A stretch of DNA of 64,000 nt from Fusobacterium sp. (lineage in GTDB: Bacteria > Fusobacteriota > Fusobacteriia > Fusobacteriales > Fusobacteriaceae), in the NCBI RefSeq assembly GCF_036516095.1, contig NZ_DATBUM010000017.1:2520-66519 (forward strand), read 5' to 3'. Made by a program: the position numbers and the translations under genes. The notes beneath the pieces were generated by a model. It saw only the letters and a list, made by a program, of their open reading frames with translations. It was not told the DNA's origin and did not search any database. Numbering within the stretch: the stretch's first letter is position 1; every line of letters starts with the position of its first letter. Positions 61,910-63,298 of this stretch are shown here, piece by piece.

Positions 61910-63298
61910 ATGTTTGATTTAGTACAACACAGAAAACCAACGTTATTGGAGTCGTTAGCTATTATTTTTATTATTTTTATGTTATTGGGATTTCCTATGA
62001 TTGCCATTCCCAATATGACACCTCATATTCCGGTATTAATCAGTATTATTTTTCTAATTTTGTATGGAATGTTTCATAAAATCTCTTTTAAGAAGATGCA
62101 GGAAAGTATGATACAATCTGTCAGTACCAGTATGGGAGCAATTTATTTATTTTTCTTTATTGGAATTTTAATTTCTGTTTTGATGATGTCGGGAGCTATT
62201 CCTACTTTGATGTATTATGGTTTGGATATTATTTCCACAAGGGTATTTTACTTGTCTACTTTTTGTATTACCGCGATTATCGGAATTTCTATCGGAAGCA
62301 GTTTGACAACCGTTGCTACATTAGGTGTCGCTTTGATGGGGCTATCCAATGCCTTTGGATTAAATCCGGCAATTACAGCGGGAGCTATTGTGTCAGGAGC
62401 TTTCTTTGGAGACAAAATGTCCCCTTTATCGGATACAACAGGAATTGCTGCAAGTATTGTTGGCGTGGATTTATTTGAACATATTAAAAATATGTTATAC
62501 ACAACATTGCCTGCCTTTATTATTTCCGCTATTGTATTTGGAGTGTTTTCTCCGTGGAATCAAGCCGGGGACATATCAAGTGTAGCTGCTTTTAAAGAAG
62601 ATATTTTATCGACAGGCTTGGTGCATGGATATGCCTTATTGCCTTTTATATTATTGCTCATTTTTTCTATATTTAAAGTTCCTGCCATTGTCACGATTAT
62701 TTTTACGAGTATTGCGAGTTTAGTGATTGCAGAAATACACACGAATTACAGTTTACAGGAGATTGGAGCCTTCTTATTTGCAGGATTTTCAAAGGGTGGG
62801 ATTCCGGAAAATATAGCTTCTTTGATTAGTCGTGGCGGAATTAACAGCATGTTTTTTACGATTACCATTATTATTTTAGCTCTGAGTTTAGGAGGACTTT
62901 TATTCGGTTTAGGAATTATTCCAACCCTGTTAGAAAGTATTGCACATTTTTTAAATTCTGCATCAAGAGCTACCATTTGTGTTGTGATTACTGCTTTAGG
63001 AGTCAATTTTATTGTAGGAGAACAATATTTAAGTATTCTATTAGCAGGAAAAACATTTAAGCCTGTCTATGATAAACTGCATTTACACTCTAAAAATTTA
63101 TCAAGAACCTTGGAAGACGCAGGAACGGTTATCAATCCGTTGGTTCCTTGGGGAGTTTGTGGAGTGTTTATTAGCAGTATGTTGGGAATTTCTACCCTGG
63201 CATATTTACCTTTTTCCGTTTTCTGCTATACCAGTTTGATCTTGACTGTTATTTTCGGATTCACCGGTTTGACATTGACCAAAGGAGGAAAGGAGTGA
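61910..63298 (+). CDS. nhaC: NhaC-family transporter, probable tyrosine (aromatic amino-acid) importer
   Basis: IGSSLTTVATLG, SGAFFGDKMSPLSDTT, SRTLEDAGT, PLVPW NhaC motifs; substrate inferred from the Tyr4 leader. Confidence 0.88.
   Translation: MFDLVQHRKPTLLESLAIIFIIFMLLGFPMIAIPNMTPHIPVLISIIFLILYGMFHKISFKKMQESMIQSVSTSMGAIYLFFFIGILISVLMMSGAIPTLMYYGLDIISTRVFYLSTFCITAIIGISIGSSLTTVATLGVALMGLSNAFGLNPAITAGAIVSGAFFGDKMSPLSDTTGIAASIVGVDLFEHIKNMLYTTLPAFIISAIVFGVFSPWNQAGDISSVAAFKEDILSTGLVHGYALLPFILLLIFSIFKVPAIVTIIFTSIASLVIAEIHTNYSLQEIGAFLFAGFSKGGIPENIASLISRGGINSMFFTITIIILALSLGGLLFGLGIIPTLLESIAHFLNSASRATICVVITALGVNFIVGEQYLSILLAGKTFKPVYDKLHLHSKNLSRTLEDAGTVINPLVPWGVCGVFISSMLGISTLAYLPFSVFCYTSLILTVIFGFTGLTLTKGGKE

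Follow-up and report, generated by a model that had tools for sequence, protein, structure and literature searches.

A gene of the NhaC family in Fusobacterium, at positions 61910-63298 of the 64,000-nucleotide stretch of DNA analysed here (the window), lies behind a leader peptide gene with four tyrosine codons in a row and a set of mutually exclusive RNA hairpins. This leader is very likely a working attenuator, and the protein that it controls is likely to import tyrosine, as suggested by its regulation, its position in the protein tree and the auxotrophy of its hosts. It would be a TyrT-type secondary transporter, controlled by ribosome-mediated transcription attenuation, that supplies protein synthesis with scavenged tyrosine. 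The initial annotation had predicted an importer of tyrosine, possibly of phenylalanine, from a leader with four Tyr and three Phe codons, and the tyrosine part of this predicted function is supported herein.

The leader is present with the codon content first described, as a separate ORF with its own AGGAGG site (Table 1), in which phenylalanine codons occupy positions 13, 16 and 17 and the four consecutive tyrosine codons positions 18-21. Upstream of it lies a candidate promoter; three such sites were found against 2.8 expected, and a similar -35/-10 pair is seen at the equivalent place in orthologous loci. Among the 829 short ORFs of the whole genome that are led by a Shine-Dalgarno (SD) site and precede a long ORF, no other contains four tyrosines in a row, and a genome-wide scan of the source genome for further leader attenuators gave no second convincing case. 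No Rfam family matched over the whole 64-kb window, which holds neither a lysine nor a SAM riboswitch, and T-boxes were absent from the window, from the source genome and from three other Fusobacteriales genomes. Four raw RNA runs yielded one to five partial, unrelated reads each and are silent on expression.

Table 1. Features of the attenuator and transporter locus (positions within the window)
Feature	Position	Strand	Remarks
Candidate sigma70-type promoter, TTGACT-17-TAGAAT, extended TG	61610..61638	+	10/12 consensus match only
Leader ribosome-binding site, AGGAGG	61656..61661	+	Similar sites precede orthologous leaders
Leader peptide gene, 23 codons	61669..61740	+	Tyr codons 61720-61731; Phe codons 61705-61707 and 61714-61719
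Hairpin 1:2, directly after the leader stop	61741..61767	+	Predicted; forms only without a ribosome on the stop codon
Hairpin 2:3 (anti-antiterminator)	61756..61793	+	Predicted; favoured once the ribosome covers segment 1
Antiterminator 3:4	61769..61828	+	Predicted duplex; captures the terminator 5' arm
Intrinsic terminator 4:5	61810..61852	+	13-pair stem to 61842, then U-rich tail
NhaC-family (TyrT-type) transporter, predicted tyrosine importer	61910..63298	+	Profiles, tree, fold model
213-aa ORF, no Pfam/NCBIfam family, signal-peptide-like start	63295..63936	+	Overlaps the transporter stop by 4 nt

Between the leader and the transporter gene, the transcript contains five segments, predicted to pair as 1:2, 2:3, 3:4 and 4:5. 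The 4:5 stem with its U run is the only terminator found, where shuffling gives an expectation of 0.1. Compensatory changes occur in 5 of 12 terminator pairs, a level reached in none of 500 shuffles and by no slid control. In 16 of 17 homologues, the competing 3:4 duplex is stronger than that with shuffled partners (p<=0.012), and its covariation on one fixed alignment does not exceed that of shuffles because the pairing register shifts. As the arms of 1:2 and 2:3 are nearly invariant, covariation support is absent for both; the core pairs of 2:3 were built into the pattern of the metagenome search described below, and their invariance is therefore not independent support. Folding predicts this set of helices for the majority of 11 loci.

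Under a shortage of charged tRNA-Tyr, the ribosome would stall on the tyrosine run and leave segment 1 free to pair with segment 2, upon which the 3:4 antiterminator would form and RNA polymerase could enter the gene. With tyrosine in ample supply, the ribosome would get to the stop codon and mask segment 1, so that 2:3 could pair and the 4:5 terminator would form. We modelled the ribosome as masking 12 nt from its A site. With the ribosome stalled on the last tyrosine codon, the antiterminator had a probability of 0.99 and the terminator one of 0.01, whereas a ribosome at the stop codon gave 0.83 for 2:3 and 0.83 for 4:5; within this model, it is the position of the ribosome that selects the RNA structure. 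When partial transcripts were folded at equilibrium with a ribosome on the stop codon, 3:4 was still favoured, so the off state would need 2:3 to form first and then persist. The design of the switch is well supported, and its action is what we infer from the folding model.

Comparison among species points to tyrosine as the signal. The same leader is found before close relatives of the gene (69-94% identity) in Fusobacterium, Oceanivirga, Eubacterium, Clostridia and Peptostreptococcus, and the genes upstream of it differ among species; on plasmids, the leader had no match. A metagenome search with an RNA-scaffold pattern free of tyrosine codons recovered 76 loci. All of them have a tyrosine run upstream (in the same frame in 75, in another frame in one), and the downstream ORF belongs to this NhaC family wherever it is readable. 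Because the 76 loci are kin, they document conservation and purifying selection on one element, not repeated origins. All 37 distinct leaders have tyrosine at positions -5, -4 and -3 relative to the stop, and it is common at -6 and -7; both synonymous tyrosine codons are used and their distance to the hairpins is fixed, while the remaining peptide varies freely. Phenylalanine, on the other hand, is a minority residue at each leader position and is missing from some leaders. Since the tyrosine codons are invariant and the phenylalanine codons are not, the signal is tyrosine, and phenylalanine, initially named as a possible substrate, finds no support as the regulatory signal.

A variant of the arrangement was seen on a truncated contig from a human gut metagenome (L175, minus strand, ~418-190), where the same attenuator scaffold precedes a more distant NhaC gene, the fragment of which is 43-51% identical. 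Its leader uses another reading frame and has Phe, Tyr and Trp codons, a U-tailed terminator is absent, and the last predicted hairpin masks the ribosome-binding site of the gene. This single contig possibly represents a translational version of the attenuator.

The transporter gene is an unbroken ORF with an ATG start and encodes 462 aa. The protein belongs to the NhaC family (TC 2.A.35): it matches TIGR00931 over its full length at 416.7 bits (cut-off 370) and PF03553 likewise full-length and above cut-off. Its closest named relatives are Fusobacterium necrophorum proteins (93-94%), which places the source in the necrophorum group of Fusobacterium. Its AlphaFold2 model (pLDDT 86) adopts the IT-superfamily fold, with best matches to a model of MleN (TM 0.85, 31% identity) and, more weakly, to TRAP M domains and DASS carriers. 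The match of the predicted structure confirms a fold that is also that of organic-acid carriers, and is silent on substrate; a search of the PDB by sequence returned no solved relative. Residues specific to the clade described below, including F81, G125, L323, N409 and V416, are not counted as evidence on the substrate. The protein falls short of the model for the arginine/ornithine antiporter ArcD, its score of 297.8 bits against NF052307 being below the cut-off of 650.

At a GC content of 35.3%, compared with 34.3% for the genome, nothing in the base composition hints at a recent transfer. The 213-aa ORF that overlaps the end of the transporter gene is probably co-transcribed with it; it adjoins the transporter only in the necrophorum group and at one further locus (L120), and is not a conserved partner. 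Directly upstream, at 60150-61574, lies an NSS-family transporter gene. It is 28% identical to the NSS transporter linked to tyrosine phenol-lyase elsewhere in the genome, and stands beside the NhaC gene in 0 of 13 related loci checked.

We placed the protein in a tree of 61 rows (IQ-TREE, LG+G4), which was rooted on a pair annotated as MleN together with a row under a lysine riboswitch. Redundant Neisseria and Fusobacterium rows, the most distant paralogues, B. firmus NhaC and MetT, an S-box-controlled NhaC-family transporter, were left out. A clade of 43 rows with a support of 100/99 contains all leader rows, all ten T-box rows and three rows from tyramine (tdc) clusters; outside it fall six loci led by lysine riboswitches, the MleN-annotated rows and the paralogues from the source genome. 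Among these rows, MetT not being one of them, the phylogeny thus groups the protein with the tyrosine T-box proteins and apart from the lysine-riboswitch and MleN-like ones. Of the background on which the initial annotation drew, tyrosine T-box control of NhaC genes is confirmed in the literature (PMC2494555), NhaC genes under lysine riboswitches were seen directly, and none of five genomes checked had an S-box-led NhaC gene.

T-boxes precede relatives of the gene at 36-53% identity, and the specifier loop reads UAC in 10 of 10 that were aligned. Most of them score below the Rfam gathering cut-off, at 60-78 bits with E-values of 1e-10 or better. That of the B. cereus group reaches 149.6 bits and precedes a protein whose length (457 aa) and spacing agree with those of BA4345 in PMC2494555; a near-identical sister row of this protein has a 90% cluster that includes B. 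anthracis. At the B. cereus-group locus (L214:1992-2330), the T-box is followed by a second antiterminator/terminator copy without a second specifier domain. Reciprocal best hits link the Bacillaceae T-box proteins to the protein studied here. In the source genome, the top BLAST hit of the Lactobacillales T-box and tdc proteins is another paralogue, by a slight advantage, and they are grouped with this gene by the tree only.

The leader clade is nested several well-supported forks deep within Bacilli rows. Forcing 22 Bacilli rows together was rejected (AU p 0.0005; this group was named after the first tree had been seen, and excludes two Gemella rows). Within Fusobacteriota, close copies of the gene were found in a few genera only, and the same leader-gene cassette is found in Firmicutes at 69-77% identity. 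Taken together with the nesting among Bacilli, this argues for horizontal transfer, which would make the gene a xenologue of TyrT. The orthology to T-box-led TyrT that was considered at the outset stands as far as the reciprocal best hits and the nesting among T-box rows are concerned, but the copy is probably a transferred one.

The nearest outgroups (Gemella, a Eubacteriales MAG, Neisseriaceae and Moraxella) and several Bacillaceae have neither a T-box nor the leader, so that a loss with a later gain explains the pattern no less well than direct replacement. The proposed replacement of a T-box by a leader peptide is retained as a change of sensor that probably involved an unregulated stage and a transfer. 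The change probably consisted of T-box loss and a subsequent single gain of the leader, accompanied by horizontal transfer. Descent from a T-box-controlled lineage is quite probable: a Bacilli lineage under a tyrosine T-box would have lost it and gained the leader once, and the leader-plus-gene cassette would then have spread horizontally among host-associated anaerobes. BVAB1 sits within the leader clade and lacks the leader, which suggests a later loss. A leader-bearing Eubacterium genome retains T-box matches elsewhere, and the sensor change in that lineage was therefore not forced by an inability to use T-boxes. No tyrosine-pathway genes were found beside relatives that have neither leader nor T-box (Neisseria, Moraxella, Gemelliphila, Lysinibacillus, Mesobacillus, Ottowia and one proteobacterium), and a sample of 250 gammaproteobacterial genomes contributed one further close hit only.

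The physiology predicted from the host genomes is consistent with a need for such a transporter. No prephenate dehydrogenase (TyrA) or dehydratase (PheA) domain scored above cut-off in five leader-bearing genomes, that is, the 99.9% complete source genome and four others, in a search that recovered 14 of 14 controls. Cells with these genomes most likely must import both tyrosine and phenylalanine. On another contig of the source genome, a tyrosine phenol-lyase gene (tpl; TIGR02618, 858 bits) is followed by an NSS-family transporter gene (G000:C45:2718-5567, L290). The pair is likely a separate catabolic tyrosine module, to which the NhaC gene is unlinked. Because an NSS transporter adjoins tyrosine phenol-lyase, the NhaC protein is probably not the sole tyrosine route, and a starvation-induced scavenger would fit alongside the catabolic one. 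Tyt1, cited in PMC10707687 as the characterised NSS-family tyrosine transporter of F. nucleatum, takes up tyrosine in the same genus and belongs to an unrelated family; its likely counterpart is the NSS gene beside tpl. The chorismate synthase match of the source genome (G000:C122:4617-5555) and of a second one (G001:C1:1047840-1048778) is in two pieces in different frames, and it is whole in two others (G027 and G194). This split may reflect a frameshift or a divergent segment.

The leader tells when the gene is wanted, not what its protein carries, and the literature searched contains no transport assay for any member of the clade. Within the wider family, amino-acid transport has been shown for a Halobacterium arginine/ornithine exchanger (PMC5300872) and Na+/H+ antiport for some archaeal NhaC proteins (PMC10342064). 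It is conceivable, although rather unlikely, that tyrosine is sensed while the carrier is a broader aromatic importer, for Tyr and Phe and perhaps Trp, or that the Phe codons are a second input in this species. Such breadth is favoured by the Phe-Phe pair directly before the tyrosine run in the necrophorum group, by the absence of PheA as well from the source genome and by the combination of Phe, Tyr and Trp codons in the distant homologue L175, but it is at odds with the scarcity of Phe at each leader position, its absence from some leaders and the tyrosine specificity of all ten T-boxes. This possibility overlaps with tyrosine import and differs from it in breadth only. An improbable alternative is a cargo related to tyrosine, such as a precursor or keto acid (4-hydroxyphenylpyruvate), a tyrosine dipeptide, or an amino donor in acid/salt exchange. 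The MleN-annotated row lies outside the clade, even though the MleN model is the closest fold, and the gene is a solitary one that has neither an aminotransferase nor a peptidase gene as a conserved neighbour. In the service of tyrosine synthesis, an aspartate-like acid/salt antiporter has been proposed (PMC2494555), but as the TyrA domain is absent from leader-bearing genomes, an amino donor for de novo synthesis would be of little use.

We regard as very improbable that the protein is a genuine Na+/H+ antiporter, as annotated, with only an indirect link to tyrosine, for example through ion balance in tyrosine catabolism. Both sensors would turn the gene on at tyrosine shortage, the opposite of what a catabolic ion balance needs, and the gene is not linked to tpl. 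The equivalog cut-off of TIGR00931 is indeed passed, but this model cannot count as substrate-specific because close family members sit under lysine riboswitches; nhaC-2 of the tdc cluster has also been described as a Na+/H+ antiporter, with its role unexplained (PMC4932888). Finally, the short ORF could be incidental and the terminator could simply close an upstream transcript, given that AT-rich DNA easily yields Tyr, Phe and Asn codons and that the NSS gene ends 95 nt 5' of the leader. This is hardly credible in view of the invariant tyrosine codons in both synonymous forms, their fixed distance to the hairpins and the free variation elsewhere, and it also disagrees with the leader's own candidate promoter and SD site and with upstream genes that vary by species.

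The tyrosine importer reading joins a line of earlier predictions. Tyrosine T-box control of NhaC homologues was reported with a proposed role in tyrosine import or production; the T-box-led proteins were found to be most similar to B. firmus NhaC, and an acid/salt antiporter was offered as a reading (PMC2494555). Tyrosine transport by TyrT is a published prediction only, dating from 2008. The T-box-led TyrT proteins (BA4345 and Lactobacillus orthologues) belong to the same clade as the Fusobacterium protein, which is 47% identical to the B. cereus-group protein and 48-53% identical to the Bacillaceae T-box rows, and both would be induced by a shortage of charged tRNA-Tyr. They differ in the sensor, which is a translated leader in a Fusobacterium in which no T-box was found, while the substrate is predicted in both. 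In the tdc cluster, the third gene has been named tyrT and regarded as a putative tyrosine transporter gene (PMC9413887). This nhaC-2/tyrT of Enterococcus and Tetragenococcus (PMC4932888; PMC9413887) shares the 100/99 clade and the tyrosine context at 37-41% identity, but it is part of a catabolic operon, whereas the gene studied here stands alone under predicted starvation control. B. firmus OF4 NhaC and B. subtilis MleN/YqkI have the same family and fold.

Leader-peptide attenuation is a textbook mechanism, and an untranslated trp leader leads to termination. Like trpL, pheL and hisL of E. coli, the element combines a short ORF containing a run of cognate codons with mutually exclusive hairpins and an intrinsic terminator. 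It departs from the classical attenuators in being specific for tyrosine, in its location on a transporter gene, in the absence of an Rfam match and in its five segments, owing to which a ribosome at the stop codon frees the anti-antiterminator; read-through is the predicted outcome here for a leader that is not translated, unlike in trp. The same layout is seen in predicted His attenuators of the B. cereus group and Peptostreptococcaceae, and swaps among T-box, repressor and attenuator have been proposed for histidine genes (PMC9413887). The parts are thus of known kinds: a TyrT predicted in 2008, textbook attenuation, and T-box/attenuator switches as proposed for histidine genes. Neither this tyrosine leader nor amino-acid attenuation in Fusobacterium is described in the literature searched, the scope of which excluded many older surveys.

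On balance, we lean towards regarding the element as a portable, undescribed family of tyrosine attenuators, a five-segment relay in which the untranslated state would mean read-through. It would have arisen on a TyrT gene that had lost its T-box, moved together with that gene across the divide of Firmicutes and Fusobacteria, and become RBS-sequestering in at least one lineage (L175). If this is true, a single transporter offers a traceable case of turnover from T-box to leader peptide, and the TyrT/tdc nhaC-2 clade gains a third line of evidence for tyrosine as its cargo. The data support one transporter lineage with two unrelated tyrosine sensors, T-box and leader peptide, and the sensor change is traceable on the tree. 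The label Na+/H+ antiporter NhaC is attached to a large clade of proteins from Fusobacterium, Neisseria, the B. cereus group, lactobacilli and enterococci, and three tyrosine signals (T-box, tdc cluster and tyrosine leader) converge on this clade, which is why the long-standing transport prediction merits a direct test. The role of nhaC-2 in the tyramine cluster, so far unexplained, also receives a possible answer, and a candidate amino-acid attenuator comes to light in Fusobacteria, where the search for T-boxes came up empty.

Several further NhaC genes were encountered in the course of this work. Those led by lysine riboswitches, in Fusobacteriaceae (L016, L267, L268, L266) and Bacilli (L264, L265), are spread over three separate regions of the tree. 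One such pair is close kin of riboswitch-free paralogues, so lysine control or specificity may have more than one origin. The NhaC proteins of Neisseria, Kingella and Moraxella (L053-L092 in Neisseriaceae, L094/L096 in Moraxella), 50-60% identical, are sister to the leader clade; their genes stand alone, and no regulatory RNA was found for them. By descent, they are candidates for tyrosine transporters rather than Na+/H+ antiporters. On plasmid pl278 of Bacillus sp. JAS24-2 (L262), tdc is followed by a thiD-like kinase gene, nhaC and a YerC/TrpR-related gene, with no tyrP, an order that resembles the HisR2-linked tdc clusters of PMC9413887.
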